Shown piece after piece: positions 1 to 51,710 of a stretch of DNA of 64,000 nt (its first letter is position 1; every line of letters starts with the position of its first letter). Source of the stretch: an uncultured Candidatus Saccharibacteria bacterium (GTDB taxonomy: Bacteria > Patescibacteriota > Minisyncoccia > Sungbacterales > HO2-52-23); contig CAZPDF010000001.1 in the NCBI GenBank assembly GCA_964585475.1, positions 81,337-145,336 on the forward strand. Reading direction: 5' to 3'. A program made the position numbers and the translations under genes. The notes below the pieces were generated by a model that saw only the letters and a list, made by a program, of their open reading frames with translations, searched no databases and was not told where the DNA came from.

Positions 1-110
1 GGTATTGGAGAAAGAGCCAGGAAACGCAAGCGTTATTTTAACCATAGAGGCGCTAAAAAAAGGAAGCGGTAGGTAGCACAATTGGACTGGTAGTGAGTAA
101 ACCCGCAAAC

Positions 111-241
111 GTCATTCTGAGCGTAGCGAAGAATCTGACGCGAAGCGTCATCCTGAGGCGTTAGCCGAAGGATCTCCTCCATATTTTAGGGGCCCCTTCG
201 CTTCGCTCAGGGCTCGCTCCGCTCGACTTCATTCAGGATGA
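111..241. repeat. Composite of two family-A palindromic elements upstream of the LTD-protein gene
   Basis: Two left arms (GTCATTCTGAGCGTAGCGAAGAATCT, GTCATCCTGAGGCGTTAGCCGAAGGATCT) are followed by matching right arms (CCTTCGCTTCGCTCAG, CATTCAGGATGAC). Confidence 0.55.
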
Positions 242-280
242 CAGCTAGAAACGCGCCATGTTACTCGCTACTAGTTCATT

Positions 281-1765
281 GTGTTTCAGGTTACAAAGAA
301 AGGCGCTTTTAGCGCCTTTCTTGTGTTTTTAGGAGGGTATTGCTACGAATATGGTATGTTTCGCAAGGCCGCTTTAATTTTCATATTAATCTTTGCGCCG
401 GCGCCTGCTTTGGCCTCAGGTGTTTTAATCAATGAAATCGCCTGGATGGGAACGGAAGTATCCACCGCCGACGAATGGATTGAACTGCGAAACGAGGGCA
501 CAGGTGATGTGGATTTGGCCGGGTGGCGGCTTGAATGGAGGGGTGGGGAGTACGGCATTACGTTCAGCATAGGAAACGGAACCGGAAAGTGTTCCACCAC
601 GCTGTTTCCTGCCAGCGGATACTTTTTGCTTGAGCGAACGGATGATACCACCCTCCCCAATGTTTCTGCTGATTGCCTTTATGCGGGGGCCCTTTCAAAT
701 GAGGGCGATATTGTAGTTTTGAAGGATCCATCCGGCACGGTTATAGATAGAATTGACGGTTCCAATGTCTGGAAGATCAACGGAGGAAGCGAGGTAGCAG
801 GAAATAATACTACTAAAGAAACCGCACAACGCAGTGCATCCGGTTGGATTACTGCCTCCCCCACGCCCCGTGCGCCAAATGCGGGAGTGCCTGCGTCATC
901 ATCCCCGTCGCCCCCTTCTTCATCCGGAACTTCAACGCCGGCCGCACCTGCTTCATCTTCTGCGCCGGCAATTGTTTATCCCGCGATTAAGGCCTATGCG
1001 GGGGAAGACCGCACGGCAATAGTGGGGGAGCTGGTTGAATTTGTTGGCCGGGCCGCAGGGATCGATAATAAGCCATTAGAGAACGCTCGATTTTGGTGGA
1101 ATTTCGGGGATGGTGAGGCCATCGAAGGCCGCGTCGTTTCCCATATTTTTAGGATTACCGGAACGTATACTGTGGGTCTTCACGTATCCTCTGCCGAATA
1201 CGCGGCATCGGATTATCTTAGAATAGAGGCCACTCCTAACCAAATTGTGGTAAAAAACGTTCTAATAGGAGAGGGCGGATCGCTCCGTCTTAAAAACGAA
1301 GGAAATACAGAGGTTGAGATCGGCGGATGGATTTTGGAGGATGCCGATGCAAATAGATTCCAAATTCCGCCTAAGACGCGGCTCGCAGAAGGAGCTGAAG
1401 TTTCGTTCGCCAGCTCCGTAACCGGCCTCTTTCGTTCCGGAGGGACGGCGCTTAAACTTTATTATCCGAATTCGAAGCTTGCGCTTGAATGGAAAGGAGA
1501 AAAAGCCAAAACTTCGCAGACGAGTACGTTCGTGGAGGAGAAAAAGTTGCCTGTCATGGCCGTTTCTCCGCCAGCGCCAATGCCATTCCAGAAAAATGTC
1601 GAGAGTGTTATAGTTGAAGAGACGAAGGCCGCGAGAGATAATAAAAATACAGCGCAAGTTTCAAATTTCTCCGCGTTCAATACGTCCGTCTTCTTTATTT
1701 TTGCTATAATTCTTAGCGTTGCAGCGGCGGTTGGATTCCTGGTTATTAAGAAGTTCTATTTCTAG
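281..1765 (+). CDS. Secreted or anchored surface protein with two lamin-tail (LTD) domains flanking a PKD-like domain, a Ser/Pro-rich linker and a C-terminal TM anchor
   Basis: N-terminal signal-like hydrophobic stretch. LTD-like motifs 'VLINEIAWMGT...DEWIELRN...GWRLEW' and 'IVVKNVLIGEGG...GWILED'. PKD-like 'FGDGE...GTYTVGLHVS'. PSS/PAP-rich linker. C-terminal hydrophobic tail. Confidence 0.55.
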   Translation: MFQVTKKGAFSAFLVFLGGYCYEYGMFRKAALIFILIFAPAPALASGVLINEIAWMGTEVSTADEWIELRNEGTGDVDLAGWRLEWRGGEYGITFSIGNGTGKCSTTLFPASGYFLLERTDDTTLPNVSADCLYAGALSNEGDIVVLKDPSGTVIDRIDGSNVWKINGGSEVAGNNTTKETAQRSASGWITASPTPRAPNAGVPASSSPSPPSSSGTSTPAAPASSSAPAIVYPAIKAYAGEDRTAIVGELVEFVGRAAGIDNKPLENARFWWNFGDGEAIEGRVVSHIFRITGTYTVGLHVSSAEYAASDYLRIEATPNQIVVKNVLIGEGGSLRLKNEGNTEVEIGGWILEDADANRFQIPPKTRLAEGAEVSFASSVTGLFRSGGTALKLYYPNSKLALEWKGEKAKTSQTSTFVEEKKLPVMAVSPPAPMPFQKNVESVIVEETKAARDNKNTAQVSNFSAFNTSVFFIFAIILSVAAAVGFLVIKKFYF

Positions 1766-1771
1766 CGGATA

Positions 1772-4252
1772 ATGGAAAAATCTAAAATTATCGTATTTTC
1801 CACCGCCTATCACCCATTTACAGGCGGTGCCGAGATTGCAATTCAGGAAGTATTGAGGCGGCTTCAAGACCGCTTTGACCCGCGCACAGAAAGGCCAAAT
1901 GAGCTAGGCGAGGCCAGCGGCCTTTTGTGCGGGGCTTCGCCCTCCGCACGGACCCCAAAAAGTAGTGGTAATACAAGGGAAAGTTCAAGCCCGTGCTCCG
2001 GGCTCCGTTTTTATATTGTAACTTCCCGTTTCAGGCGGGATTTACCAAAGATCGAAGAGCGACCCGAGGGAACCGTTATTCGGTTAGGGTTAGGGACACG
2101 TTTCGATAAATGGTTTCTCCCTTTTCTTGGTTTTTTTTCCGCCCGCAGAATCATTCGGTCAAATGTCAATGGTCAAACGTCAAATGTTGTCATGTGGGCC
2201 GTAGATATCGGGCAGGGGTCACTGGCAGCTGCGGTTTTCAAACTTTTTCATCCCCGCATCCCTTTAATTTTAACACTCCAATATGGATATGGAGCAGGAA
2301 GAGTTGTAGGGGGGCGACTTGGTCTTATTGGTGTGGCGTTTCGTTTCATGCTACGCCGCGCGGATTATGTCACAGCGATTTCAATATACTTATTAAATCT
2401 CGCGAAGAACCATGGATATAGAGGGTCGGGAAGCATAGTGCATAATGGAGTAGATATAGAAAAGTTCACCCCGTCATTCGACCGGGTGCCCCGTCGAATG
2501 ACGGGGCAAAATCCAAATTCTAAAACAGTAATCACTGTCTCCCGGTTGGTGCCCAAAAATGGCATAGATACGCTGATTAGCGCCATAGTCGAAGTTAAAA
2601 AATCAATCCCACAAATTCGTTGCCACATTCTTGGTGAAGGACCAGAAAAAGAAAGTTTAAAGTCACAAGTTAAAAGTTTAAAGTTGGATGAGAATGTCGA
2701 GTTTTTTGGGAATGTTCCGTATGACGAGATATCGAAATATCTTCACGAAGCCGATGTTTTTGTAAGGGCCTCGCGCTCGGAGGGCATGGGGAATGCATTT
2801 GTTGAAGCGTTGGCGGCAGGTGTCCCGATTATTGGCACGCCGGTTGAGGGAATACTTGATATTATTCAGGATGGCAAGACCGGTTTTTTTGCGCGGGTGG
2901 ACGATCCCAACGATCTTGCGCAAAAAATCGTCTATGTCCTTCAAAATGAAAAGGAGAGCGAGCAGAGCGTTACGGAAGGAAGACGAATGGTTGAAGAAAA
3001 ATTTTCCTGGAATGGGATCGCGCAAAAATACAGGTTTATTTTCGACCGCTACTATAGAGGCGAAACCTCTATAGTATCTATAGAGGTTTCGCCTCTCCGT
3101 ATAGTTATTGCCACCCCTCTTTATCCGCCACAGCTTGGGGGGCCAGCAATTTATGCAAAGAATTTAGGTGAGGAATTTTCTCGCTTAAGGCATCAAGTAT
3201 CCATTGTTTCCTTTGGTAAGTTTTTGCGTCTGCCGTCTTTGGTCAGGCATTTTCTTTATTTTTTTAAGGTTTTTCGTAGTTCCATTGGCGCGGATATTAT
3301 TTTTGCCCTGGATTATTTTAGCGTTGGGGCGCCGGCCGCCCTCGCCGCCCTGCTTTTATGTAAGCCACTCGTCATCCGCGTAGAAGGCGATTTTTTGTGG
3401 GAGAGTTATGTCGAGCGAAGAAGGAGCGATACAACTCTTTCTATGTTTTACCCCGCTAGAAGTCAGCCCCGACGTGACGTCGGGGCTGCCGTTCCGCCGG
3501 TGGCGGAACGGACTTCTAACGGGGCTTACCGGAATCTCCCGAGATTGTCGGCCAAAGAGCGAGTGATCCATTTTATAAGCCGGTGGGTACTTGGACGCTC
3601 GCGCATTCTTGTTTTTTCTTCGGAATGGCGCCGCGAGATGGTTGTCGGCTCACGCGGCCATCTCCGCAAGAAGTCGATAATTATCGGGAATGTATGGCCT
3701 CCGCTTCTCGAAAATCTTTCGGCAGTTTCTCAAGGATCTCGTGTAATTCTTTGGGCCGGCCGCATGCTTTATTTAAAAAATCTATATCGTCTGCTCCGCG
3801 CGTTTTCCCGACTAAAATCTGATTACGAACTGCATTTGGTAGGGGATGGTCCGGAAGCGGAACGGCTAAAAAACTTTGTCACGCAGGAACGGATCAAGAA
3901 AGTTTTCTTTTTTCCCAAACTCCCGCATGAGGCGCTGCTTAAGAAAATGCGTGAGGCGGCATTTTTTGTTCTGCCCTCGCTTTCCGAGGTGGGCCCGAAC
4001 GTGATTGCTGATGCGGCATCTTCAGGAACCCCTTTTATTATGACGAGAGAGTCGGGTTATGCCGAGTATGCCAAGGATTTTGGAATTTTCGTTGATCCGC
4101 TCAATGAAAATGAGCTCACGCAAAAGTTGGGGATGCTAATGGAGGAGACCGCGCGCTATAATATAAGAAAGGGAATTATTAAATTCTACAGCGCCTATAC
4201 ATGGGGCGAGGCTGCTCAAGAATGGATTCAAGTATTCTCAAAGGTTCTATGA
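1772..4252 (+). CDS. Tandem-fused GT4-family (GT-B fold) glycosyltransferase with two complete GT4 units
   Basis: Two N-terminal GT4 motifs ('FSTAYHPFTGGAEI', 'IATPLYPPQLGGPAIY'). Two Glycos_transf_1-type C-domains ('EGMGNAFVEALAAGVPIIGT', 'SEVGPNVIADAASSGTPFIMT'). Confidence 0.7.
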   Translation: MEKSKIIVFSTAYHPFTGGAEIAIQEVLRRLQDRFDPRTERPNELGEASGLLCGASPSARTPKSSGNTRESSSPCSGLRFYIVTSRFRRDLPKIEERPEGTVIRLGLGTRFDKWFLPFLGFFSARRIIRSNVNGQTSNVVMWAVDIGQGSLAAAVFKLFHPRIPLILTLQYGYGAGRVVGGRLGLIGVAFRFMLRRADYVTAISIYLLNLAKNHGYRGSGSIVHNGVDIEKFTPSFDRVPRRMTGQNPNSKTVITVSRLVPKNGIDTLISAIVEVKKSIPQIRCHILGEGPEKESLKSQVKSLKLDENVEFFGNVPYDEISKYLHEADVFVRASRSEGMGNAFVEALAAGVPIIGTPVEGILDIIQDGKTGFFARVDDPNDLAQKIVYVLQNEKESEQSVTEGRRMVEEKFSWNGIAQKYRFIFDRYYRGETSIVSIEVSPLRIVIATPLYPPQLGGPAIYAKNLGEEFSRLRHQVSIVSFGKFLRLPSLVRHFLYFFKVFRSSIGADIIFALDYFSVGAPAALAALLLCKPLVIRVEGDFLWESYVERRRSDTTLSMFYPARSQPRRDVGAAVPPVAERTSNGAYRNLPRLSAKERVIHFISRWVLGRSRILVFSSEWRREMVVGSRGHLRKKSIIIGNVWPPLLENLSAVSQGSRVILWAGRMLYLKNLYRLLRAFSRLKSDYELHLVGDGPEAERLKNFVTQERIKKVFFFPKLPHEALLKKMREAAFFVLPSLSEVGPNVIADAASSGTPFIMTRESGYAEYAKDFGIFVDPLNENELTQKLGMLMEETARYNIRKGIIKFYSAYTWGEAAQEWIQVFSKVL
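3451..3524. repeat. Family-B palindromic element (CCCCGCTAGAAGTC...GACTTCTAACGGGG) inserted in frame in the GT4 fusion gene
   Basis: 14-bp terminal inverted repeats enclose the hairpin GCCCCGACGTGACGTCGGGGC. It is about 75 bp (25 codons) with no stop and encodes PARSQ...ERTSNGA. Confidence 0.7.
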
Positions 4253-4325: not shown

Positions 4326-4399
4326 GTCATTCTGAACGCAGTGAAGAATCTCTATATATTTACTGGTGATTTGAGATCCTTCGCTTCGCTCAGGATGAC
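4326..4399. repeat. Family-A palindromic element (GTCATTCTGARCG-AGTGAAGAATCT ... GATCCTTCGCTTCGCTCAGGATGAC), intergenic
   Basis: Imperfect inverted repeat about 26 bp per arm. The same family occurs at 111-241, 11826-11939, 46158-46245 and 48679-48755. Confidence 0.7.
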
Positions 4400-10757: not shown

Positions 10758-12401
10758 ATGCGCGAGAAAACTATTTTTTTTCTCATTATATTTTCCATCT
10801 CGTTTTTTTTCTCCACATATAAACTTACCGAGAGTCCGCCCACGTGGTATGATGAGGGTTTTTTCTTCAACGTCGCCAGAAGCTACGCAGAATTTAACGA
10901 ATATAAATTTCAGGTAGCTCCGGGTGAATTTGTGCCCATGGGAAGGTATCTTACGGTTGGGTATCCGGTTATTTTCCCGGTTAGTATCTCGATGAAATTA
11001 GCCGGAGTGGGCCTCTTTCAGGAGCGAGCAGTAATGGCGGCTTTTATTCTCCTCTTAGTATGCGCGGTCTTCTTCTTTTTCTTGAGGAGACATGCCCCTG
11101 CGGAGGCGTTTCTTTTCACCCTGTTTTTTATAAGTTTTGGGTCTCTTTATGGAAATGGGAAAAATTTACTGGGCGAGATACCGGGAATTTTCTTTCTCAC
11201 AGCATTTTTATTGTTCTTTAACCTGCTTTTGGAAAAGAATCGGGGAAAAATGTATTTTGCCCTGCTCGCCGGTACTGCCTTGGGCCTCGGCATACTCTGC
11301 AAGCCCATTTTTATACTGGTAATCCCCGCATTTATAATCACTTTTTTGATTTTACGAAAAGATATACTGTTGAAAATCACGCGTAAGCACCTGGTTTTAT
11401 TTTTAGCTGCCGTTTTGGTGCCGCTTCTGGCCGCTATTTTTATTCAGTTTAATCGCTCGGACGATTCTTTGCTGACGGCTATTTTATTTTATATGAATCC
11501 TGCCGGCTGGAGTGGTTTTTCTGAAGTGCCGTCTATAATAATGCAAAATCTCCTGCGTCTGGTAACCGGTGCCACACCCTTGCATTTTCTTCTGCTCCTC
11601 GCTATCTGGACTTGGTGGATAGTGAAAAGAGTTCGCTGCAATTCTATACATTCTTTGCCTCCTGGCGAGCTATTCACTTTTTTATTTGTTATTTTAGTGG
11701 GATTTGCTTATTTAAGGACCCTTGGATGGTATAAGTATTTCTTTCCCGCGCATATGATGGTTTTTCTCTATTTCCCCGCCGCTCTTAAGGCACTTATAGA
11801 ACTGATAACGAGCAAATCCGCAAATGTCATTCTGAGCGTAGCGAAGAATCTCCCGCTTTGGGCGCAAAAGATCCTTCACGGAGCCTACCCTGAGATTCTT
11901 CACTTCGTTCAGAATGATGATCGAAGGGTTCAGGATGACAGCGGAAAAAGTGTCTTACTCGCTACCAATTCTGAATCTTCCATACAATATCTAAGAGGAC
12001 GGTTTGGGTTTCCTAATTTATTTCAGTGGGCGTTCATCGTCATAATTGTGATACAATTTTATCACCTGGTGTTTTTATCCTGGGTTTCCGGTTACTATTC
12101 AAGTACGCAGTCCAAAGAATTATCTGATTATTTTTCCGGCATTTCGCACGAAGAGAGTGTTTTTATCCACAGCGCCCCGGAAGCGGTTCTTTTCGTCCCT
12201 TCCAGTAACTATTATTTGTATCTGGATGATGTAATGGTAAGAAATATTGGCGCAGAACAGCTCGAGAAACTCGCCAGTGGAGTTCCCGACGTCGTTATTA
12301 TTCCTACGGAGTTAATAGATAGCCAGAGACAGTACCTCGCGCATTATAGAAAAGAAAAAGAACTCGTGGGTCAGTACACTGTTTTGAGAAAAGCGCCATG
12401 A
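10758..12401 (+). CDS. GT39/ArnT-like (PMT_2-type) integral-membrane glycosyltransferase
   Basis: Multi-TM N-terminal two-thirds typical of ArnT/PMT family GT-C enzymes. Follows a GT2 gene. Carries an in-frame family-A repeat. Confidence 0.5.
   Translation: MREKTIFFLIIFSISFFFSTYKLTESPPTWYDEGFFFNVARSYAEFNEYKFQVAPGEFVPMGRYLTVGYPVIFPVSISMKLAGVGLFQERAVMAAFILLLVCAVFFFFLRRHAPAEAFLFTLFFISFGSLYGNGKNLLGEIPGIFFLTAFLLFFNLLLEKNRGKMYFALLAGTALGLGILCKPIFILVIPAFIITFLILRKDILLKITRKHLVLFLAAVLVPLLAAIFIQFNRSDDSLLTAILFYMNPAGWSGFSEVPSIIMQNLLRLVTGATPLHFLLLLAIWTWWIVKRVRCNSIHSLPPGELFTFLFVILVGFAYLRTLGWYKYFFPAHMMVFLYFPAALKALIELITSKSANVILSVAKNLPLWAQKILHGAYPEILHFVQNDDRRVQDDSGKSVLLATNSESSIQYLRGRFGFPNLFQWAFIVIIVIQFYHLVFLSWVSGYYSSTQSKELSDYFSGISHEESVFIHSAPEAVLFVPSSNYYLYLDDVMVRNIGAEQLEKLASGVPDVVIIPTELIDSQRQYLAHYRKEKELVGQYTVLRKAP
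11826..11939. repeat. Family-A palindromic element inserted in frame in the GT39-like gene
   Basis: GTCATTCTGAGCGTAGCGAAGAATCT...AGATTCTTCACTTCGTTCAGAATGAT plus a trailing GTTCAGGATGACAGC. Translates without stop as ANVILSVAKNLPLWAQKILHGAYPEILHFVQNDDRRVQDDSG. Confidence 0.65.
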
Positions 12402-16999: not shown

Positions 17000-17398
17000 A
17001 TGTCATTCCATAACCATCGAATTCACGAAGACAATCGCCGCAAGGGTCATTATGACATAATCCCGGGCCTGGCCGGGGACATGAATTTCAGCGTTCAGAA
17101 TCCGAACATATATCCGGACGAATTACACATGCATAAAATTCATACGGATTATTTTACCGTGGCCAAGGGCAGGGCCGTTTTCCGCATGGTACATGAGGAC
17201 GGGAAGGAAGAGCACGCCGTATTGGAAGAAAAAGACGGGAAAACCCTGATTATTCCACCCGGCATCTGGCATAATTACGTGGCATTGGAGCCCACCATCC
17301 TTGTTTTTTACACTGATCGTAAATTCGACCCTAAGGATGAGTTCCGTAAAAAGATCGACCCCAAAGAATGGCAAAAAATAGTTAAAACAAAACCATAA
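17000..17398 (+). CDS. Cupin-fold sugar epimerase/isomerase-like protein (RmlC/WxcM-like)
   Basis: Small beta-rich protein with His-containing motifs 'HMHKIHTDYF' and 'IPPGIWHNY'. Located in the dTDP-sugar module. Confidence 0.35.
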   Translation: MSFHNHRIHEDNRRKGHYDIIPGLAGDMNFSVQNPNIYPDELHMHKIHTDYFTVAKGRAVFRMVHEDGKEEHAVLEEKDGKTLIIPPGIWHNYVALEPTILVFYTDRKFDPKDEFRKKIDPKEWQKIVKTKP

Positions 17399-17479
17399 CT
17401 TTGGTCAACTCCCGGTGTTGACCAGGGGTGTCAGCTGCCCTTGACTGATGTGGGGGTTTATTATACTCTGTGTTAAGAA

Positions 17480-18166
17480 TTGCTGCGGATAGGGGGAGTA
17501 ATGGGAAGCTCAAGCCCGTTCTTTACGAACTTGGACGATAATTTGGTGTTTATGGCGCGAGTGTTTAAGGATGCCGAGCCAGCCGGATTTATTGCAGACG
17601 TGGTGTATCTTTTCGGGCAGACCTCCGATAATGAGGATTCTCCGATTGAGGTTGGGGCAGAACTCTGGCATACGGGGCGTGCGGCTTTAGTTGGAATCGG
17701 CGATTGCGAAACCGGACATGGCTATCCGGGATTTGCCGTGTGGCACGCTAAGCTTAGGAAGCTTGGTGTTCCACCTACGAATATTGTTCCCGTCAAGATT
17801 TCTTCAGGAGTGAACGTGAATACACTTACCGAATCCATCACGCTTGTACTCGAAGCAAAAAAGCAAGGATGGAGAAAGATATTCATGAGTGCGGCTCCAG
17901 TTCATCAGCTTAGGGCATTTCTTACGGTGGTGAATCAGGCCGTCAACTTGTATCCGGAGGTTCTGATTTACAATAAGGCCGGTAGGGAGCTATGGTGGGA
18001 CGAGTATGTGAGCCATTCCCAGGGCATTACCGAGGGCAAGCGATCAGGGATTTTGTATGGAGAGTTTGACCGTATCAGGGATTATTACGTGAAGGGACAT
18101 CTTAGCTCTTTTCCCGAGACACTTTCATATATTCATAGCCGGGATCACTACGCCAAAATTTTGTAA
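17480..18166 (+). CDS. DUF218 (YdcF/ElyC/SanA-family) protein
   Basis: 'IFMSAAPVHQLRA' matches the DUF218 'vTSayHmpRA' motif. Paralog of 43402..44094. Confidence 0.45.
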   Translation: MLRIGGVMGSSSPFFTNLDDNLVFMARVFKDAEPAGFIADVVYLFGQTSDNEDSPIEVGAELWHTGRAALVGIGDCETGHGYPGFAVWHAKLRKLGVPPTNIVPVKISSGVNVNTLTESITLVLEAKKQGWRKIFMSAAPVHQLRAFLTVVNQAVNLYPEVLIYNKAGRELWWDEYVSHSQGITEGKRSGILYGEFDRIRDYYVKGHLSSFPETLSYIHSRDHYAKIL

Positions 18167-18310
18167 GCGGGCAGCAATGTCCGCTTGTTTGTTACTTGCG
18201 GCAGACCTGTTGACTCAGCTTAGCAAACCATTTATCGTATAAAAGTGGTTACATATGAATAGGAGATGATTGGGCTGTCCGAAATTAACCTTTTTGATTA
18301 TATAAGGACA

Positions 18311-18324
18311 GACTTCTAACGGGG
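18311..18324. repeat. Solo family-B half-site (GACTTCTAACGGGG) abutting the start codon of the next gene
   Basis: Identical to the right arm of family-B elements. No left arm found within 150 bp upstream. Confidence 0.4.
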
Positions 18325-18755
18325 TGGAAATAACTAAAGGCATAAAACCGGAATTTGCGGATATAAGAGGCGCCATTACCAAAATTCTGGACGATGGCAG
18401 GACGAATATAAAAAGCGTCCTTTTGATCACTTCCAAAAAAGGAGCTATCCGCGCGAATCACTATCATAAAAAAGATACGCACTACTGTTATATGCTTTCG
18501 GGAAAAATGGAGTATTTTGAAAAGCCGGTCCCTAGGTCGCTTGATGCGACCGGGATTCCGGCCGAAGGTTTAGGGATTGACGGAGGAAAGATTGAATCGG
18601 CAGTGCTTGAAGTTGGCGATATGGTTTTTACCCCATCGATGCACGTCCACGCCTTTAAATTTCTTGAAGACACCGTGTGGGTTACGCTTGCCACCGAGTC
18701 AAGGTCGCAGGCCGATTACGAGGCGGACACGGTAAGGGTTAAATTCATAGAATAA
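18324..18755 (+). CDS. WxcM/FdtA-like cupin (dTDP-4-keto-6-deoxyhexose 3,4-ketoisomerase-like)
   Basis: 'ADIRGAITKIL...VLLITSKKGAIRANHYHKK...YMLSGKMEY' resembles the FdtA/QdtA core. GTG start. Confidence 0.5.
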   Translation: MEITKGIKPEFADIRGAITKILDDGRTNIKSVLLITSKKGAIRANHYHKKDTHYCYMLSGKMEYFEKPVPRSLDATGIPAEGLGIDGGKIESAVLEVGDMVFTPSMHVHAFKFLEDTVWVTLATESRSQADYEADTVRVKFIE

Positions 18756-18783
18756 GCACAAAATTCAAAGCACAAAATCCAAA

Positions 18784-19857
18784 ATGCACCCCATCATACA
18801 AGAAGATTTAGAGAATATAGTCGTGGCCATTAAAAGCGAGGCCGGGGCTTTGGAGGGAAAAACCCTGCTTATTAGCGGCGGAGCTGGCTTTTTGGGTTCT
18901 TATTTTTTGGGCACTTTGGATTTGCTCAACCGGAGCGTTTTCAAAAAACCCTGCACGGTCGTTTCCCTGGATAATTACATAACCGCTTCAAGAAAAGGTT
19001 TTATTCAGGAAATTCAGGGTCCGAACGTGCGTCTTATTGAAGGCGACGTGACGGCGCCGATTAATATAGACGGCCCGGTGGATTATATTATCCATGCAGC
19101 CGGATTAGCTTCCCCCTTTTATTATAAAAAATATCCGCTGGAGACCATAGAAGCTGCGATTGCTGGAGCCAAGAATCTTCTTCGACTCGCGCTCGAGAAA
19201 CATGCGAAAAGTTTTCTTTTATTCAGCTCCAGTGAAATTTATGGAGACCCTGACCCCAATTTCATCCCGACTCCGGAAAGTTATAAAGGCAGTGTTTCCT
19301 GTATTGGTCCGCGGGCCTGTTACGATGAATCAAAACGTCTGGCCGAAACCATAGGCACGACTTATTTTGAAATCCACGGCGTACCTATTAAAATCGTGAG
19401 GCCCTTTAACGTTTACGGCCCAGGCATGAAGTCCGACGACTATAGGGTTATCCCCGCTTTCATCACGAAGGCCATCCGAGGTGAGTCCTTAAACGTCCAC
19501 GGGAGCGGAAATCAGACCAGGACTTTTTGCTATGTCAGTGATGCGATTACCGGGTTTTTAAAAGTTCTTTTATCTGAAAAGAACGGAGAGGCGTACAACG
19601 TTGGAACGGCGGGCCCCGAGGTAAATATGGTGACGCTGGCCAATATGATTACGGGATTTTTCGAGAATAAAATGAGAATTGAGCTTATAAGCTACCCCGA
19701 ATCTTATCCTGCCGACGAACCAAATCGCCGCTGCCCGGACCTTACCAAGATTCGATCCAGGTTGGGGTATGAACCGAAGATTGATTTGAAAACCGGACTT
19801 GAGCGAACCATCCGGTGGTTTCGCGATACGCTTCCTCCGTCAACCAATTTAGTTTAG
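18784..19857 (+). CDS. NAD-dependent epimerase/dehydratase, UDP-glucuronate decarboxylase (UXS/ArnA C-domain)-like
   Basis: 'LLISGGAGFLGSY'. 'SEIYGDP'. 'YDESKRLAE'. 'RPFNVYGPGM'. Confidence 0.7.
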   Translation: MHPIIQEDLENIVVAIKSEAGALEGKTLLISGGAGFLGSYFLGTLDLLNRSVFKKPCTVVSLDNYITASRKGFIQEIQGPNVRLIEGDVTAPINIDGPVDYIIHAAGLASPFYYKKYPLETIEAAIAGAKNLLRLALEKHAKSFLLFSSSEIYGDPDPNFIPTPESYKGSVSCIGPRACYDESKRLAETIGTTYFEIHGVPIKIVRPFNVYGPGMKSDDYRVIPAFITKAIRGESLNVHGSGNQTRTFCYVSDAITGFLKVLLSEKNGEAYNVGTAGPEVNMVTLANMITGFFENKMRIELISYPESYPADEPNRRCPDLTKIRSRLGYEPKIDLKTGLERTIRWFRDTLPPSTNLV

Positions 19858-19860
19858 CTT

Positions 19861-20856
19861 ATGCAAGCACCTTTGCGTTTTGGAATAGTCGGACTCGGTT
19901 ATTTTGGAAAAAATTACGCGCGGCTCTTGCGTAAAATGCCGGGTGTGACTTTAAAGGCGGTTTCGAGCCGGTCGCAAGCGGCGTTCCGAAAATACGCCGT
20001 TTTTCTTTCTCCTTTAGTTCGAAAGCATACATCCGCCGGTGAAATTTTTCGCGCCAAAGACATTGACTGCGTAATTATTGCTACTCCGCCCTCGACCCAT
20101 TTTGCCATGGCGCGTGAAGCCCTGAAGCACAAAAAGCACGTCCTGGTGGAGAAGCCGTTTGTCCTGCGAGTAAAAGATGCTTTGGCTCTTGGTCGTCTCG
20201 CCAAGGCCGAGAAGCGCACTATAATGATTGGTCATCAGTATTTGTATAATGACCACGTTCGCTACCTAAAGCACGAACTCGCTAAGGGTAAGTTAGGAAG
20301 AATTCGCTATGTCTTGGCCGAGCATTTTTATCCGGGACCTATTCGCTCCGATGTCGGATGTTTTTGGGAGACGGCCACGCATGAACTTGCTATCCTGGAT
20401 TATCTTTTTGGTCCGTTGAAAGTTAGTCGTGTGGCCGGCGGATCTGTCAGCTTGAGTACGAAAAGTAGAGACGATTTTTCCTCTGCGTTTGTCCGATTTA
20501 GGAAGGGGCCCGCGTTGGCGCTCGCCGTATCTTGGTTTTCTCCTGAAAAAATCCGGCGGATGATATTTGCCGGTGAAAAAGGGTGGACCGTGTTTGACGA
20601 TCGGGCGGAAGTTAAGCTTAAATTTTATCTCCATCCTTACCCGCGCATTCCTCGCCAAGCCAAATCCTCTTCATATTTTTTTGATCCAAGAAAAATAAGG
20701 TTTTTTGTTCCGCGAATCCGGGCAGGAGAGCCGCTCCGGAATGAACTGGAGCATTTCGTATCGTGTGTACGCAAAAATAGGGTCCCGCTTACTGACGCTT
20801 CGCACGGAGTCCGTATCACACGAATGCTTGAGAATATTCAGTCAAAGTTGAAGTAA
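19861..20856 (+). CDS. Gfo/Idh/MocA-family NAD(P)-dependent sugar oxidoreductase
   Basis: 'RFGIVGLGYFGKNY'. 'VIIATPPSTHF'. 'HVLVEKP'. Confidence 0.7.
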   Translation: MQAPLRFGIVGLGYFGKNYARLLRKMPGVTLKAVSSRSQAAFRKYAVFLSPLVRKHTSAGEIFRAKDIDCVIIATPPSTHFAMAREALKHKKHVLVEKPFVLRVKDALALGRLAKAEKRTIMIGHQYLYNDHVRYLKHELAKGKLGRIRYVLAEHFYPGPIRSDVGCFWETATHELAILDYLFGPLKVSRVAGGSVSLSTKSRDDFSSAFVRFRKGPALALAVSWFSPEKIRRMIFAGEKGWTVFDDRAEVKLKFYLHPYPRIPRQAKSSSYFFDPRKIRFFVPRIRAGEPLRNELEHFVSCVRKNRVPLTDASHGVRITRMLENIQSKLK

Positions 20857-25502: not shown

Positions 25503-25575
25503 ATGCTTTTGTCAGTCGTCATCCCGGCATATAACGAGTGGAAAACCATTCGTGCGATTGGAGCTAGTGACCCCG
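25503..25575 (+). pseudogene. Orphan 5' fragment of a GT2 glycosyltransferase gene (MLLSVVIPAYNEWKTIRAIG...) truncated by a palindromic element
   Basis: Near-identical to the N-terminus of the intact GT2 at 26299 ([19 protein letters not shown]). The frame runs into repeat 25571..25764. Confidence 0.5.
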
Positions 25576-25764
25576 TTAGAAATCCAGCCATGGCTATATT
25601 ATTAAGAAGGTAGAAAGGCGAAGCCCCGTTTGAAAGCTCGCATTGCAAGCATCTCGAAGTAAAAAATTGCCTGCGGTTTGACAAACAACTTTCTGACGAG
25701 GCGAAGCCGACTTACGTCTATCCGCTTCTTTAAACGAAGTACCTTTTTAAGATTTCTAACTGGG
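25571..25764. repeat. Family-B palindromic element (CCCCGTTAGAAATC...GATTTCTAACTGGG), 194 bp
   Basis: 14-bp terminal inverted repeats. Lies between the GT2 fragment and the TA cassette. Confidence 0.55.
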
Positions 25765-27148: not shown

Positions 27149-28774
27149 TTACACCTCGCGGCAAAGTAGCGCCGAAGAAATCTTGCGCCAAGAGCGTAGG
27201 GTATTCCCAAAGAGCGGGGTAAAACCGTAACTGGCGAGGATAAATATGAAGGCGTTTACGGGGTAGCGGAAGCGGCCCTGGTCGCTGAAGCCGGCCACCG
27301 TACTCGTCAGAGCATAAGTGAAGATTATGGCGCTCATGATAAGCGCTATTTTTCTTTCCTGCCCGCCGCGTTTTATGGCGTAAGCCGCGCCCAAGACCCA
27401 TAAGACATTAAAAACGATCCATAGAGCCCGTCCGGCAACTGGAATGGGGGCGAACCATCCGATTCGTTCCCAGACAAGTTTTGCGAGTTTCATCGGCCCT
27501 TCCTGAAATAGGGTCACCGATGGGGAAAAATCAATCTGGAAACGGGGTACTGCGTGAAAATGTTGTAGATAAGTGAGATAGAGGTCTTGGGCAAAGAAAG
27601 TGGACATGCTGATTAAGACGACCTGTGCAGTCTCTTTTGGATAAGTAATGATGGTTTGCAGGCCCTCTTTTGCAAGCGCGGTGCCTATGCTCGGATTTTC
27701 TCCTATATCGCGGATTTCCAGGCCATGTCTTGCGGAAAAATCGCGGTTAAGCTCATTTTTTACTTCTCCGATGGGTCTTCCGGTGTTGAGAGAAAGAATT
27801 GAAGATCCGATGGAGGAGTAGACATTGCGGAGGCCGGTGGTGGCGATATTGAGGGTATTGAATTGATAGTAATTGCGGATGAGCCAGGGAGAAAGCACGA
27901 CGAAGAAAGCAAGGGTAAAAGCCAGCAATATGCGACTTCCTCGGTATTTTGCTTCTCCGGCACGCTCATCCGCTCCAGCGGCGGATTCGCTAAGGGTCGG
28001 TCGAGCCGCCCCGCCTTCGGCGGGTACCGAGCCGGCTCTACCTCCCATTACCGGCGAAGCAAAATACCTCGGCAGTATTTTAGATCGCCGCCACCTTAGG
28101 AGAAGGATGGAGAGAAGAAAGAAGAAGCCGAGTATAAAAAGAAATTGCGCGTGAGGGCGCGTTAGGGTGGAGAGCGCGAGGAAGATTCCGGCGAGAGCCG
28201 CATAGCGCATTCCCCAATCATCAACCCCGTTAGAAGTCTGTTCCGCCGAAGGCGGAACAGCAGATGCCTGTGGCATCTGACTTCTAACGGGGTCAAGGGT
28301 TTTTAAAAAAAAGTATGTCGCAAGAAGTAGAAAAAAAACCGCAACCGTTTCGGTAAGAACAAGAATGCTCCATACAGCACCCATCGGCTCAAACGCCATG
28401 AGTCCTGCGGCCAAAAGCGGTACCCCCCCCGACTTAGCAAGAAATTTAGCGATCGCGTATACCAGAATCGGCATAAGCGAAGAAAGAATTATTTGTAGTA
28501 TAAGTAGGGGCAGCATTGATCCGGAAAGTTTGAGGGAGCCCGCCATGAGCAAGGGAAAGATCGGAGGAAAATGGGCGCTTGGCTGGAAAGGTAGCGCTTC
28601 GCTTCCACTGAATCCGTTTCCGGCGACGATGTTCTTTGCCGTTAGAAGAAATCCGTAGGAATCGGATGTAAAAGTTTTTTCTTCGCCAAGCGTGTGGATA
28701 ATAGTAAAAAGCAGTGCAGCCCTTAAGACAAAAGTTGCGACAACGATAATGAGAAGTGTTCGCGGCAAATTCAT
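27149..28774 (-). CDS. GT39/ArnT-like integral-membrane glycosyltransferase with an in-frame family-B repeat and a C8/G8 homopolymer
   Basis: Multi-TM. 'LTAKNIVAGNGFSGS' ArnT/PMT-like N-region. Convergent with the GT2 at 26299. Confidence 0.5.
   Translation of the reverse strand: MNLPRTLLIIVVATFVLRAALLFTIIHTLGEEKTFTSDSYGFLLTAKNIVAGNGFSGSEALPFQPSAHFPPIFPLLMAGSLKLSGSMLPLLILQIILSSLMPILVYAIAKFLAKSGGVPLLAAGLMAFEPMGAVWSILVLTETVAVFFLLLATYFFLKTLDPVRSQMPQASAVPPSAEQTSNGVDDWGMRYAALAGIFLALSTLTRPHAQFLFILGFFFLLSILLLRWRRSKILPRYFASPVMGGRAGSVPAEGGAARPTLSESAAGADERAGEAKYRGSRILLAFTLAFFVVLSPWLIRNYYQFNTLNIATTGLRNVYSSIGSSILSLNTGRPIGEVKNELNRDFSARHGLEIRDIGENPSIGTALAKEGLQTIITYPKETAQVVLISMSTFFAQDLYLTYLQHFHAVPRFQIDFSPSVTLFQEGPMKLAKLVWERIGWFAPIPVAGRALWIVFNVLWVLGAAYAIKRGGQERKIALIMSAIIFTYALTSTVAGFSDQGRFRYPVNAFIFILASYGFTPLFGNTLRSWRKISSALLCREV
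28225..28292. repeat. Family-B palindromic element in frame in the GT39-like gene
   Basis: CCCCGTTAGAAGTC...GACTTCTAACGGGG. Encodes DPVRSQMPQASAVPPSAEQTSNGVDD on the minus strand. Confidence 0.7.
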
Positions 28775-29647: not shown

Positions 29648-30433
29648 ATGACTTTAGACTTTTATAGAAAAATTAGACATGTTCCAGCCGGTATTCTTGC
29701 AAAATTCTTTGAAAGACAGGCGGAAATGACGCTCCGAAAAAATCGTCCTTTGTGGGGTTTACTGCAGGATTATCTTAAAAATTCGCCCTCAACCGGATGC
29801 GCCTATTCTGATTATCTTCTTCTCTATAATTACATCAGAAACAGAAAGCCCAAGGAAGTTCTTGAGTGCGGTACGGGGGTTTCCACAGTTGTTATTGCGT
29901 ATGCGCTGAAAGAGAACGAACGGGATTATGGGATTAAGGGCAGGGTTACTTCAATGGAAGAATCGCCTAATTATTACAATGTAGCGCTAAAGCTGTTTCC
30001 AGAGAGAGAGAGCCTTAAAAGCTATGCAGAGATAGTATTGAGTCCGGTGATGGAAGATACTTATCATTTCTTTCGCGGCATACGTTATAAAGATGTTCCT
30101 TTGCGGCCATATGATTTTGTATTTGTGGATGGCCCTGATTATTTGTGCGATCCAAAAGGCGAGATAATTTTATTCAATTTTGATTTTGTGGATATAGTTA
30201 GAAAATCAGAAAAACCCGTAGGGGCCCTGATAGATACCAGAACCACCACCTGTTTTGTGTACTCACTGCTTTTTGGAGATGAGTTTAGATATGACTATGT
30301 GCGAAAAGTGGGAATCGTGGAGCCGGTTACGAAAAACGATCTCGCGCCGGTCCAAAAAATTGTCGCAAGGTCAATGAGGGCGCATTCATTCAAAAGGCCG
30401 CCTTTCCTGAATTTCATACGAGGAACTTATTGA
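29648..30433 (+). CDS. Class I SAM methyltransferase (Methyltransf_24/CmcI-like)
   Basis: 'VLECGTGVSTVVIAYAL'. 'DFVFVDGPD'. Confidence 0.45.
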   Translation: MTLDFYRKIRHVPAGILAKFFERQAEMTLRKNRPLWGLLQDYLKNSPSTGCAYSDYLLLYNYIRNRKPKEVLECGTGVSTVVIAYALKENERDYGIKGRVTSMEESPNYYNVALKLFPERESLKSYAEIVLSPVMEDTYHFFRGIRYKDVPLRPYDFVFVDGPDYLCDPKGEIILFNFDFVDIVRKSEKPVGALIDTRTTTCFVYSLLFGDEFRYDYVRKVGIVEPVTKNDLAPVQKIVARSMRAHSFKRPPFLNFIRGTY

Positions 30434-31905
30434 ATACAGGTATGAAAACAATTTTTATTACTATTGATGATCCGGCGGCACTAAAGAACATTTTCGGCAC
30501 CAAAGCATGGCCCGAGGTTTTGCGATCTTCCGCGGATGCCAAACTCGTGCTTTTGACGAGGCCTAGCAAAAAGGAAGCACACGAGAAGTTCTTTGTTGCG
30601 CCGAACATCGTGGTTGAAGCGCTTGATCCTGCGTTTGATTCTCTTATGTCGGGCGTAATTGCGTCTCTGGCCCGCAGCGGGATTAGAACCCATACCAATC
30701 TTTGGTCTAAAATGCGCTCTTACGAACGGGGTGATTCTGGGTTTTTGGTGACAATGTTCAAGCGGGCATATACTTTTCTTTTGGGCGGATCGTCTCTCAA
30801 TAAGAGGTTTTTGCGTCGTATCTTTCTGGGGCTTGCGCCGGCCAAAGCGACGGCCGCACTCTTTGAAAAATATCAGCCCTCGCTTCTTTTTGCGACCTCG
30901 CTCACCAACATTGATTTTGACGTGCCTATCGCGGTTGAGGCGAAAAGGCGCGGCATACGGATCGTCGGCATGGTGCGAAGCTGGGATAATTTTTCGAGCC
31001 ACGGGCTCACTCGTGTAATCCCGGATCGGTTGATCTTGCAAAATAAGTTTTTAAAAGATATGGCCGAGCGGCACCAGGCTATCACCGAAAAAGACGTGCC
31101 GATCGATATCGTTGGTTTGCCGCACTATGACATGTATGTCGGTTTTGAAAAAATGCTTGAAAGCAGAGAATCATTTTTCCAAAGGATGGGGCTCGACCCT
31201 TCAAAAAAACTGATTCTTTACGGGGCAATGGGGGATTTTCTTTTTCCGAATGAGGGGGGAATGGCCGACGTGCTTGAGGAACTGATTGACCCCGTTAGAA
31301 GTCAGACGCCAAAGGCATCTGCTTATTCCCAAGGGAATCAGACTTCTAACGGGGTTGAATCGCGGGCTATTCAAGAGCCAGCCCAAGTTCTTTTCCGCGC
31401 CCACCCAAAATTCAATAGTCCCCTTGAAAGGATGAAAGGAATGAAACATGTTAAGCCGGACAAAGACGTGTCCAATAGTACGGGCGATTTCATGAAGCAT
31501 CTTATAAATTCCATTTACCATAGTGATATTGTTGTTGCTGGCGCATCTACGATCGTGATTGATTCTATAATGTTGGCAAAACCCGTGATTTGCGTTGGTT
31601 TCGATGGCCTTGAAAAAAAGGTTCCCTATTGGACTTCGGTAAAGCGTTTTTATGACTGCTACACGCATTTTGAAGCGTTAATGGAAACAGGCAATATACC
31701 GCTTGCGAATACCAAAGCAGAATTGGCGCGTTTAATAGATGAGGCCCTCCGGCAGAAATCCTACGACCAAGAGCCGCGCCAAAAAGTGATTGATCTTTTC
31801 GTGGCGCCATTTGATGGACATTCAAGCGAGCGGCTCGCCCAAATCTTAGTCAAAGAATTTACTAGTATACGAGATGGACAGCGGATTCAACCAAAAATTC
31901 ATTGA
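30430..31905 (+). CDS. GT-B-fold polysaccharide biosynthesis protein (CDP-glycerol glycerophosphotransferase TagB/F-like or capsule-synthesis KpsS-like) with an in-frame family-B repeat
   Basis: Two Rossmann-like halves. 'FRAHPKF...IVVAGASTIVIDSIMLAKPVICV'. The family assignment is uncertain. Confidence 0.35.
   Translation: MNTGMKTIFITIDDPAALKNIFGTKAWPEVLRSSADAKLVLLTRPSKKEAHEKFFVAPNIVVEALDPAFDSLMSGVIASLARSGIRTHTNLWSKMRSYERGDSGFLVTMFKRAYTFLLGGSSLNKRFLRRIFLGLAPAKATAALFEKYQPSLLFATSLTNIDFDVPIAVEAKRRGIRIVGMVRSWDNFSSHGLTRVIPDRLILQNKFLKDMAERHQAITEKDVPIDIVGLPHYDMYVGFEKMLESRESFFQRMGLDPSKKLILYGAMGDFLFPNEGGMADVLEELIDPVRSQTPKASAYSQGNQTSNGVESRAIQEPAQVLFRAHPKFNSPLERMKGMKHVKPDKDVSNSTGDFMKHLINSIYHSDIVVAGASTIVIDSIMLAKPVICVGFDGLEKKVPYWTSVKRFYDCYTHFEALMETGNIPLANTKAELARLIDEALRQKSYDQEPRQKVIDLFVAPFDGHSSERLAQILVKEFTSIRDGQRIQPKIH
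31290..31354. repeat. Family-B palindromic element in frame in the TagF-like gene
   Basis: CCCCGTTAGAAGTCAG...GACTTCTAACGGGG. Encodes DPVRSQTPKASAYSQGNQTSNGVE. Confidence 0.7.
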
Positions 31906-36120: not shown

Positions 36121-36290
36121 GACGAAATTTAATAAAAGGGGGCGATGCCCCTTTTGTGATTCGTCTATTTTGACTTGTCCCATTAGAAACGGAGTTTCTA
36201 ATGGGATTGCCAGCGATGCCCCACGCTTTCTTCAAGACGTTTGGTGACGTGTGCGGCGGCTTGATCGCTACCGCCAAATTGTTTGATTTT
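36121..36290. repeat. Left copy of a roughly 100-bp direct duplication (terminator hairpin + 3' end of the radical-SAM gene) flanking the DUF5678/protease cassette
   Basis: Matches 37255..37420 at about 85% (AAAAGGGGC-ATCGCCCCTTTTGTGATTC...ATTGCCAGCG.TG.CCCACGCTTTCTTC.AGACGTTT..TGACGTGT). Carries the frame of pseudo-ORF 36198..36440(-), which ends '...HVTKRLEESVGHRWQSH' versus the intact '...HVRKRLEESTGHRWQSK'. Confidence 0.55.
36124..36145 (+). terminator. Rho-independent terminator hairpin after neuB
   Basis: GGGGGC-GAT-GCCCC followed by TTTT. Confidence 0.55.
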
Positions 36291-37257: not shown

Positions 37258-37282
37258 AAAAAAGGGGCATCGCCCCTTTTGT
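37258..37282. terminator. Bidirectional terminator hairpin (GGGGC-ATC-GCCCC flanked by A/T runs)
   Basis: AAAAAAGGGGCATCGCCCCTTTT sits between the cassette and the 3' end of the minus-strand radical-SAM gene. Confidence 0.55.
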
Positions 37283-37297
37283 GATTCTTAATGGAAT

Positions 37298-40610: not shown

Positions 40611-40632
40611 AAAGCCTGCATAAAGTTTGTTT

Positions 40633-40667
40633 TAACATTATTGATGCGGTCGCATCATCGATGTTAA
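40633..40667. promoter_or_regulatory. Palindromic operator TTAACAT-N3-TGATGCGGTCGCATCA-N3-ATGTTAA upstream of the wHTH regulator gene
   Basis: Nested dyad symmetry. A second copy lies at 41234..41269. Confidence 0.5.
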
Positions 40668-40682
40668 AATAAATTTATCCCC

Positions 40683-41210: not shown

Positions 41211-41233
41211 AGTCCAAGATTTTATTTTAAATT

Positions 41234-41269
41234 TTAACATCAAATATGCGGTCGCATGATAGATGTTAA
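41234..41269. promoter_or_regulatory. Second copy of the palindromic operator (TTAACATC-N4-ATGCGGTCGCAT-N4-GATGTTAA) upstream of the PP2C gene
   Basis: Near-identical to 40633..40667. Confidence 0.5.
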
Positions 41270-41343
41270 AATAAAGTGGTTTCTCTCAAAAGCTTGTAGC
41301 CAGGGTATCTTGTTTACATTGACAGAGGCGGTTCTTAGCGTTA

Positions 41344-48825: not shown

Positions 48826-48833
48826 TGAAAATT

Positions 48834-51708: not shown

Positions 51709-51710
51709 GT

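Follow-up and report, generated by a model that had tools for sequence, protein, structure and literature searches.

A palindromic repeat translated within a patescibacterial glycosyltransferase gene and its probable kinship with the Ssn-related NTS/SRM motifs

How does a palindromic repeat come to be translated inside a membrane enzyme, and to which system of repeats and enzymes does it belong? The question was raised by a 64,000-nucleotide (nt) stretch of contig CAZPDF010000001.1 (assembly GCA_964585475.1) from an uncultured Candidatus Saccharibacteria bacterium (Patescibacteriota, Sungbacterales); this whole stretch is called the window. As the original prediction had it, the open reading frame (ORF) 10758–12401, encoding a glycosyltransferase, reads in frame through a repeat element at 11826, giving ...SANVILSVAKNLPLWAQKILHGAYPEILHFVQNDD.... 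The repeat, here named family A, occurs at five loci of the window. The copy in the gene turned out to be part of a larger composite unit with an intergenic sister copy, and its hairpin arms are probably a variant of the published NTS/SRM motifs that are related to Ssn nucleases.

The composite unit in the glycosyltransferase gene

The host gene, the inserted unit with its parts, and the sister copy are as follows; the arm pattern and the covariance model are described in the next section.

10758–12401, plus strand: host gene, a GT-C membrane glycosyltransferase of 547 amino acids (aa), PMT_2/GT39-like with ArnT fold, carrying the insert (ORF, PF13231, homologues, model)
11796–11975, plus strand: inserted composite repeat of ~180 nt or 60 codons (I347 to about E406), translated in frame (full-length match to 81–288)
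11796–11815, plus strand: left outer inverted repeat ATAGAACTGATAACGAGCAA, common to 81–100
11826–11851, plus strand: arm 1, an oriented hairpin whose G·A strand is the coding strand (0 mismatches to the arm pattern; covariance model 46.0 bits, E = 1.1e-10)
11852–11892, no strand: non-conserved inter-arm spacer with a degenerate arm fragment GATCCTTCAC..., read from the sequence
11893–11918, minus strand: arm 2, the arm 1 motif in reverse complement, so that the two make up an inverted doublet (covariance model 37.7 bits, E = 2.6e-8)
11926–11939, minus strand: third-arm remnant GTTCAGGATGAC, aligning with the end of the sister copy's right arm (227–241)
11955–11976, plus strand: right outer inverted repeat TTACTCGCTACCAATTCTGAAT (sequence comparison with the sister copy)
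81–288, plus strand: sister composite unit, intergenic, with extra arms at 111–136 (plus), 147–175 (plus) and 194–212 (minus) and a remnant to 241 (alignment, covariance model)

The segment 11796–11975 aligned over its entire length with the intergenic copy 81–288, the ~20-nt outer inverted repeats included, at about 76% identity. Because of this end-to-end homology, the gene must have received a copy of a composite unit that is also present outside genes. The element had previously been placed at 11826–11939. A palindromic element is present there, but these 114 nt were too short, the unit comprising ~11796–11975 (180 nt). Arm 2 was 88% complementary to arm 1. Perfect matches to the core of the outer repeat, TTACTCGCTAC, were limited to positions 261 and 11955 of the window; position 90 has an imperfect one.

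In a Logan contig from SRR8863434, an independent assembly of this organism, the sequence breaks off inside the sister copy, at about window position 201, as expected for a dispersed repeat. Repeats thus break assemblies of this organism, and the NCBI and ENA contigs are not independent, the same reads probably underlying both. Both points would fit a repeat-induced chimera that put the element inside the gene. However, the sequences on either side of the insert are parts of one gene, share its frame and align with homologues, whereas a chimera would join unrelated sequence. An assembly artefact of this kind is therefore extremely improbable.

The earlier identification of the host as a GT39-like membrane glycosyltransferase was supported by several lines of evidence. 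ORF 10758–12401 contains a PMT_2 domain (PF13231, E = 1.1e-9), and its homologues (n = 110, median length 483 aa) originated mostly from Patescibacteria, several of them being named GT39. The AlphaFold model, with a mean predicted local distance difference test score (pLDDT) of 82.4 and a predicted template modelling score of 0.84, had its best PDB matches in ArnT (5F15/5EZM), other top matches being ALG12/ALG9, AftA, STT3/PglB and PMT1/2. An acidic motif after the first membrane helix, W30-Y31-D32-E33-G34, was invariant in 19 sequences. With the PMT_2 domain, the acidic motif and a multi-helix fold with a C-terminal soluble domain, the gene shows the traits of a GT-C enzyme of the PMT_2/GT39-like type.

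In an alignment with 18 homologues, the extra segment was unique to the query. It lies between the helix following the AYLRTxGWYRYFFPA motif and the last membrane helix, in the most length-variable loop of the family. Between two conserved flanking motifs, present in 70 sequences, the query has 111 residues and the 69 homologues have 42–61 (median 53); at the insertion site the homologues are ~58 aa shorter. The unit, and with it any peptide derived from the arms, was absent from the 110 homologues. Within 11796–11975 the gene's own frame alone is free of stops, the other five frames showing 1–5 stops each, and the sister copy is interrupted in all six frames. In the AlphaFold model the insert reached a pLDDT of 54–74, versus 87–95 in both flanks. 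Tryptic peptides expected from the translated insert include NLPLWAQK and ILHGAYPEILHFVQNDDR.

These features are consistent with a ~180-nt composite palindromic unit that would have been copied into the loop joining the last two membrane helices, leaving no target-site duplication. The insertion would have survived through a length divisible by three, the absence of stops in the frame used and the nature of the loop, which is short, variable and probably cytoplasmic, and it would be translated as a 60-residue, poorly structured excursion. Survival in frame looks like a selection filter and not like design, since the unit is not intrinsically open, as the stops in five of its six frames and in all six of the sister copy indicate. 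For the glycosyltransferase itself the consequence is probably small, amounting to one tolerated loop insertion.

As to whether the loop is periplasmic or cytoplasmic, the helix count was ambiguous (12 or 13), so no exact topology could be derived from counting. Analogy with ArnT and the positive-inside rule place the loop probably on the cytoplasmic side. Petrou et al. 2016 is said to locate the C-terminal domain of ArnT in the periplasm, the loop at the insertion site is short and rich in Lys/Arg in all aligned homologues, and the insert itself contains 8 Lys/Arg residues.

The insertion might instead have inactivated the glycosyltransferase, in which case the open frame would be an accident of recent date and the gene on its way to becoming a pseudogene. 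For a polytopic enzyme, 60 extra residues between membrane helices are a large perturbation, and many other glycosyltransferases nearby might compensate for a loss. Moreover, about one in ten random insertions would be expected to be in frame and stop-free, since one of the six frames is open and the length is a multiple of three. Against this, the copy is only ~76% identical to its sister, hence not very recent, and is still stop-free, and it occupies the loop in which the family tolerates most variation in length. Downstream of the insert, the invariant and near-invariant residues of the homologue alignment are all kept (S441, V443, Y447, Y488, G498, Y530 and others). We consider inactivation quite unlikely.

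Colonisation of coding sequence in frame had been proposed for the family as a whole. The glycosyltransferase represents one true read-through insertion (111 versus 42–61 residues), but the behaviour is not a property of the family, as only one of the five window copies lies in a coding sequence. Among 539 arms in ~1.1 Mb of other genomes, ~20 elements were located in ORFs of ≥200 aa, and most ORFs of this size overlapping arms were spurious products of high G+C. Credible intragenic cases were a Bacteroidales NtrC-type regulator with an insert between the AAA lid and HTH_8, a Parcubacteria NlpC/P60 protein and an EamA transporter with an insert in the C-terminal tail. All of these outside the window were at domain boundaries or termini, and the frames used by in-gene copies were simply those without TGA. 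The family shows occasional tolerance and no preference for coding sequence. The Bacteroidales case, a sigma-54 regulator in a metagenome-assembled genome (L052, 1639–3000), carries two separate in-frame arm-derived segments, PSPPERSEESMF in the receiver–AAA linker and VILSEAKNL...GLRMTG between the AAA lid and HTH_8.

The place of the unit within a gene is unusual but not without precedent. The closest behavioural precedent for the in-frame insertion is the Rickettsia palindromic element (RPE; PMC10969869). [quoted passage not shown] The likeness is one of behaviour. RPE are intragenic at high frequency and restricted to Rickettsia, whereas one of the five family A copies in the window is intragenic.

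The oriented hairpin arm

The 26-nt arm GTCATYCTGARCGNAGYGAAGRATCT was confined to five loci of the window with 11 arms, at a chance expectation of 0. The pattern GTCATTCTGAGCGNAGCGAAGAATCT (26 nt, ≤3 mismatches) matched 7 times, whereas 100 shuffles led to an expectation of 0.00. Arms of unrelated metagenomic loci served to build a covariance model, which was run over the window with filters off and detected 11 significant arms with E-values from 5e-11 to 4e-4, starting at 111/147/194, 4326/4374, 11826/11893, 46158/46219 and 48679/48732. The inventory of five loci is complete for the window, since the next match of the model had only E = 0.31. All five loci named in the original prediction were thereby recovered, with no arm elsewhere in the window. 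Family A is indeed a repeat family, and its sequence differs from that of the CCCCGTTAGAAGTC family. Every locus consists of an arm, a non-conserved spacer of 22–41 nt and a reverse-complement arm, which together form an inverted doublet, and the spacers vary in length and sequence among the five copies. Apart from the in-gene unit and its sister, the following doublets were identified by pattern and covariance model.

4326–4399, no strand: intergenic arm doublet, arms 4326–4351 (plus) and 4374–4399 (minus)
46158–46245, no strand: intergenic arm doublet, arms 46158–46183 (plus) and 46219–46245 (minus), enclosed by a perfect 12-nt inverted repeat ACTTACGCGTTT/AAACGCGTAAGT
48679–48757, no strand: intergenic arm doublet, arms 48679–48705 (plus) and 48732–48757 (minus), nested in a 16-nt inverted repeat, itself within an element of a second repeat family, B, at 48647–48825

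An ORF said to arise from the opposite strand of the last doublet, 48723–48920, exists and ends with ...CHSERSEESNI.

The arm is an oriented hairpin of 26–29 nt, composed of a T-GTC tag, a 5-bp stem ATYCT/AGRAT, tandem G·A/A·G, a GCGNAGC mini-hairpin and a final C-T. Exact matches to the degenerate 26-mer were found in genome records of at least ~20 phylum-level groups, and the carriers include isolates (Hymenobacter, Pedobacter, Mucilaginibacter) as well as closed long-read chromosomes. The arm is therefore neither an artefact nor lineage-specific. In a first set of 150 arms from ~20 phyla, positions 6/22 formed Watson–Crick pairs in 144 arms (Fisher 7e-35) and positions 11/17 in 143 (Fisher 2e-24), the two pairs varying independently of one another. 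A second set comprised 37 distinct arms from loci selected by protein similarity only. Here 99.2% of cells were paired and four of seven pairs were changed on both sides (UA/CG/GC/AU), a result reached by 0 of 500 shuffles, and controls slid along the sequence were 18–53% paired.

The unpaired positions were conserved as well. Tandem G·A/A·G (GA/GA) was fixed in 93 of 94 arms, and the TGTC tag stood directly 5' of the stem in 92 of 97. In the 37 distinct arms T2, C3 and C25 were invariant and G1 exceeded 90%. The apex was GCGNAGC with any N in most arms and otherwise a longer GC hairpin. Conservation ended sharply outside the arm, beyond position −1 and beyond about +2. These data show a selected single-strand hairpin in which the tag nucleotides are fixed. 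Because a tandem G·A reads C·T on the complementary strand, the motif has a functional strand. From the fixed unpaired nucleotides it can be predicted precisely what a cognate nuclease reads, which is of practical interest as Ssn enzymes are in development as sequence-specific cutters of single-stranded DNA (ssDNA). The apical seven nucleotides of most arms correspond to d(GCGNAGC), an extraordinarily stable DNA mini-hairpin (Hirao; PMC13037366). The latter differs in being a physico-chemical motif and not a genetic element, and its stability would be expected to extend to the arm context.

The arms could also act as RNA, in the form of a terminator, mRNA stabiliser or regulatory hairpin, or as binding sites in double-stranded DNA kept for the host, and the copy in the gene would then be an exapted mRNA segment or a useful loop. 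The predicted transcript of 11790–11980 folds strongly (−60.4 kcal/mol, z = −3.9), and at the nuclease genes described below the upstream arms precede the start codon by 9–35 nt. RNA too can contain tandem G·A pairs and GNA loops, and repetitive extragenic palindromic (REP) elements stabilise mRNA. This role of REP elements is given in PMC3733652 only as hypothesised. The whole window showed no Rfam match at gathering thresholds, the best match having 20.8 bits versus 97. The arms are found in either orientation and in intergenic contexts of every kind, GCGNAGC is a mini-hairpin of DNA (PMC13037366), and the Ssn enzyme of Neisseria binds neither RNA nor duplex DNA (PMC11893778). A function as RNA or for the benefit of the host is accordingly very unlikely.

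In permissive Rfam mode, AaHKsRNA41 (20.8 bits, threshold 97) and a plant miRNA (15.2 bits, threshold 100) appeared, both generic long-hairpin matches. A hammerhead-like ribozyme was rejected by inspection. CUGA...GAA resembles part of the hammerhead core, but the arm has neither a CUGANGA box nor a three-way junction. Literature searches for the arm sequence or for arm-derived peptides (HPERSEGS, LRCAQDD and others) returned nothing relevant.

Association with stand-alone GIY-YIG genes

ORFs within 250 nt of arms were clustered for 120 loci. The sole recurrent credible family plausibly tied to the arms was a stand-alone GIY-YIG protein of ~93 aa; the remaining recurrent clusters were unrelated host genes or spurious ORFs derived from the arms themselves. 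Neither a recurrent transposase family nor any Y1/RAYT (REP-associated tyrosine transposase) was present among these ORFs. In four of four arm-selected loci having the GIY-YIG gene, it was flanked by an arm and a reverse-complement arm.

A further 80 metagenomic loci were obtained by protein similarity alone and then scanned. They contained 263 arms, compared with ~2.5 in shuffles. An arm stood beside the GIY-YIG gene in the bracketing orientation in 56 of the 80 loci and on both sides in 26. Arm density amounted to 7.6 per kb within 100 nt of the gene and 0.03–0.25 per kb beyond 700 nt. The commonest layout was an arm at −20/−35, the gene and a reverse arm at +10/+50, often with extra complete doublets alongside.

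The ~93-aa protein comprises a GIY-YIG domain (PF01541, E = 5e-17) and showed 46% identity (E = 1.7e-25) to the SsnA orthologue of Neisseria gonorrhoeae, which sits among NTS repeats. Its cultured relatives are annotated only as 'GIY-YIG nuclease family protein', and the Ssn-type nuclease had no match in 50,697 phage records. Ssn-type genes were surrounded by the same arms in Planktothrix and Spirosoma, and arms were also present at the gene in Hymenobacter glaciei (JCM 17225). Around the Ssn-type genes of Sinorhizobium and Neisseria gonorrhoeae, variants were found that share the GTCAT tag and have a perfect stem; the Neisseria variant is the dRS3/NTS repeat. The arm with tandem G·A (GA-type) is thus shown to be physically tied to Ssn-type genes in other genomes.

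Two of these genomes showed further detail. On plasmid p1 of Planktothrix agardhii No.66 (17347–20613), the Ssn-type gene and dense arrays of arms and half-arms are located in a defence island, between a type IIL MmeI-like restriction-modification gene and DISARM drmA. Sinorhizobium meliloti (1703672–1706929) has tandem Ssn-type genes with GGATCCTCGGGTCAAGCCCGAGGATGACA after each, which might correspond to the rhizobial intergenic repeats (RIME).

The combination of an ssDNA-specific nuclease with a hairpin repeat has been described as NTS/SRM–Ssn (Chenal et al., Nat Commun 2025; PMC11893778). SsnA is a single-domain GIY-YIG protein of 94 aa that binds the NTS hairpin only as ssDNA, on one strand only, and cuts a few nucleotides upstream of it; cutting depends on three nucleotides before the palindrome and binding on a C after it (PMC11893778). 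In Neisseria and Wolbachia, repeats are bound likewise by an Ssn of ~94 aa. SRMs were reported near 71% of Ssn homologues (tblastn E < 1e-10) and on both sides of 42%, and an Ssn homologue was present in 81% of genomes with >200 SRMs (PMC11893778). About 2% of the NTS repeats in Neisseria are intragenic. Rickettsia is among the genomes with >300 SRMs (PMC11893778), so that a link between RPE and SRM is possible.

Family A shares with NTS/SRM, including Neisseria dRS3/NIME, the 5' GTCAT tag, a stem starting ATTC.../...GAAT and the C after the palindrome. Like these repeats, it comprises hundreds of intergenic copies in many phyla, rarely inside genes, and a repeat–gene–repeat arrangement around a ~93-aa single-domain GIY-YIG gene. 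GA-type arms show several of the traits that characterise an SRM, namely an inverted repeat of 20–50 nt able to form a hairpin, an oriented motif with conserved 5' tag nucleotides and a conserved 3' C, and, in other genomes, flanking single-domain GIY-YIG genes homologous to SsnA. Family A differs in that a fixed tandem G·A internal loop and a GNA triloop replace the perfect CCCGC/GCGGG stem of NTS, in its usual arrangement as inverted doublets with variable spacers, in the larger composite units of some genomes and in the one unit translated inside a gene. Family A is furthermore known from sequence alone.

The published SRM search string, HGTCWYN(0-2)YYVSBRHN(0-5)WNVSBRGN(0-2)RNCYNB, matched Neisseria NTS (8 matches in the N. 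gonorrhoeae locus). Its failure on GA-type arms, detailed below, makes family A a variant class. By architecture and gene association, we regard it as likely that family A arms are a variant of the Ssn-related NTS/SRM motifs. The association of GIY-YIG proteins with hairpins, arrived at independently here, is already published (PMC11893778), and family A is best filed there. Keyword searches of the literature joining GIY-YIG to REP, MITE or palindromes gave no result, and the publication was found via Neisseria dRS3.

The Ssn/SRM system was described only in 2025, mainly in Neisseria and Wolbachia. With their tandem G·A and GNA mini-hairpin, the present arms make up a second class of Ssn-associated hairpin, which is very widespread and escapes the published pattern, and current SRM counts are therefore underestimates. 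GA-type arms exist in Patescibacteria (candidate phyla radiation) and travel there as larger composite units able to enter genes in frame.

The arms were also compared with REP elements and their doublets (REPINs), which are associated with RAYT, an HUH enzyme of the Y1 type. Likenesses are short imperfect hairpins, a conserved single-stranded tag, inverted doublets with a spacer, copies flanking the gene of an ssDNA-recognising enzyme, the lack of target-site duplication and, for REP, occasional intragenic copies (PMC3733652). Family A differs in its tag, GTCAT versus GTAG or CGTC (PMC3733652), and in its enzyme, a GIY-YIG nuclease versus an HUH tyrosine transposase. Identity with REP/REPIN–RAYT was rejected on the (T)GTCAT tag and the lack of a Y1 gene family near the arms at the 120 loci. 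The family A arm sequence is common to at least ~20 phyla, whereas REPs are lineage-specific.

Spread of the units and a second repeat family

Composite units with arm doublets were duplicated within two genomes, the present one and one of Acidobacteriota. In the latter, two copies on different contigs were ~90% identical over the whole unit. Doublets inside a recurrent outer inverted repeat GGCTGCGGAAAAAC...GTTTTTCCGCAGCC were observed at several Acidobacteriota loci (L018, L022, L037, L062, L073, L082). No target-site duplication was found in 143 doublets. Direct repeats of 2–8 nt at their ends were at or below chance, and a classical MITE was rejected on this ground, although inverted arms are present. 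A general location of the elements in loops of pre-existing hairpins was likewise rejected, flank complementarity being only slightly above the control (6.87 versus 6.35 of 14); complementarity beyond the elements was strong in a subset that includes three of the five window copies.

In the mechanism proposed for family A, a cognate Ssn, which we infer for this genome, would recognise the G·A strand of each arm when single-stranded and nick just outside the arm. Cleavage, or repair provoked by it, would then spread or maintain the repeats. The published work on Ssn demonstrates only that it cleaves and affects transformation, with mobility put forward as a hypothesis; its authors note that NTS-ssnA-NTS resembles an insertion sequence (IS) and raise a REP/RAYT-like domesticated element (PMC11893778).

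Several points weigh against an Ssn-driven origin of the insert. An Ssn-type gene was absent from the ~73 kb covered, consisting of the 64-kb window and 9.4 kb on its right-hand side, and the latter 9.4 kb contained no family A arm. The SRM string matched none of 259 GA-type arms near Ssn-type genes and no window arm, since its V-S positions are disrupted by the tandem G·A. Cutting of GA-type arms by Ssn is predicted by analogy with the Neisseria enzyme. The arms of a doublet are on opposite strands, so that Ssn-like cuts would fall on different strands and would not lead to single-strand excision in the style of IS200/IS605. Most window copies have unrelated spacers, which speaks against a single master copy having been amplified recently. 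That the glycosyltransferase is active with its insert is presumed. Finally, the unit has outer inverted repeats of its own, and a different system could have moved it with the arms as passengers.

This last point can be extended to an ordinary MITE- or REPIN-like unit moved by another enzyme, either Y1/RAYT or a system reading the outer repeats ATNGRACTGRTAGYGAGTAA, with the GTCAT arms as passengers or secondary insertions. The ~20-nt outer inverted repeats are shared by the in-gene and sister copies and lacking in the other three window copies, and the Acidobacteriota doublets with their lineage-specific outer repeats and ~90% identity have the look of MITE-style amplification. The absence of an Ssn gene from ~73 kb of this genome and a doublet layout like that of REPINs (PMC3116915) also agree with it. 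On the other hand, the 143 doublets lacked target-site duplications, GIY-YIG was the sole credible recurrent family near the arms of the 120 loci with no transposase family among them, and the tag is GTCAT and not the GTAG/CGTC of the REP super-families (PMC3733652). The outer repeat occurs only twice and thus gives no evidence of a separate family. Movement by another enzyme is on balance unlikely, and an Ssn-related origin of the arms is preferred.

The window contains a second repeat, family B, which is associated with a different small GIY-YIG gene.

3451–3524, 18311–18324, 25571–25584, 28225–28292, 31290–31354, 48647–48825 and 51710–51723: family B repeat CCCCGYTAGAAGYC ... GRCTTCTARCGGGG, 11 half-sites
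About 68840–69100 in window-equivalent positions (contig L203, 4297–4557), minus strand: uncalled GIY-YIG ORF of 86 aa (PF01541, E = 8e-15), ~5 kb past the right end of the window

The 11 half-sites, whose sequence is also written CCCCGTTAGAAGYC, compare with 0.06 expected in the window. One pair (31290/31341) is located inside ORF 30430–31905, and another (48647/48812) encloses a family A doublet, giving nested palindromes. Family B half-sites bracket the 86-aa GIY-YIG gene: CCCCGTTAGAAGCC precedes the ATG by 5 nt, and GGCTTCTAACGGGG overlaps its stop codon. Small GIY-YIG nucleases are thereby tied to both repeat families of this genome. The 86-aa protein has 621 close relatives in Patescibacteria. 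The same bracket was found in a closed Sungiibacteriota genome (CP066690.1; L217) and, in other contigs including L218, beside a diversity-generating retroelement. The presence in this genome of a different small GIY-YIG gene between copies of an unrelated repeat suggests that the arrangement of a nuclease with its own repeat is more general than one family.

It is possible, though less likely than not, that both repeat families are non-autonomous derivatives of minimal IS-like units with a ~90-aa GIY-YIG nuclease as their sole gene, family A belonging to the Ssn-type and family B to the 86-aa enzyme. If true, GIY-YIG single-strand nucleases would be the mobilising enzymes of pan-bacterial hairpin elements without target duplication, with at least two unrelated pairings of repeat and enzyme and with proteins remodelled by in-frame insertion.

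Several metagenomic contigs (L218–L225, e.g. L218 863–1799) contained two tandem small GIY-YIG genes of 86 and 91 aa, flanked on one side by an Lcl_C-domain gene and on the other by bAvd and the reverse-transcriptase gene of a diversity-generating retroelement. Two further repeats were present in the window. A 45-nt palindrome (TTTTAACAT...GCGGTCGC...ATGTTAAAA), unrelated to families A and B, stands at 40626–40673 and 41231–41275 on either side of ORF 40683–41210. The segments 36134–36252 and 37259–37352, ~1.1 kb apart, share 83–86% identity and include a terminator-like hairpin AAAAGGGGC...GCCCCTTTT.

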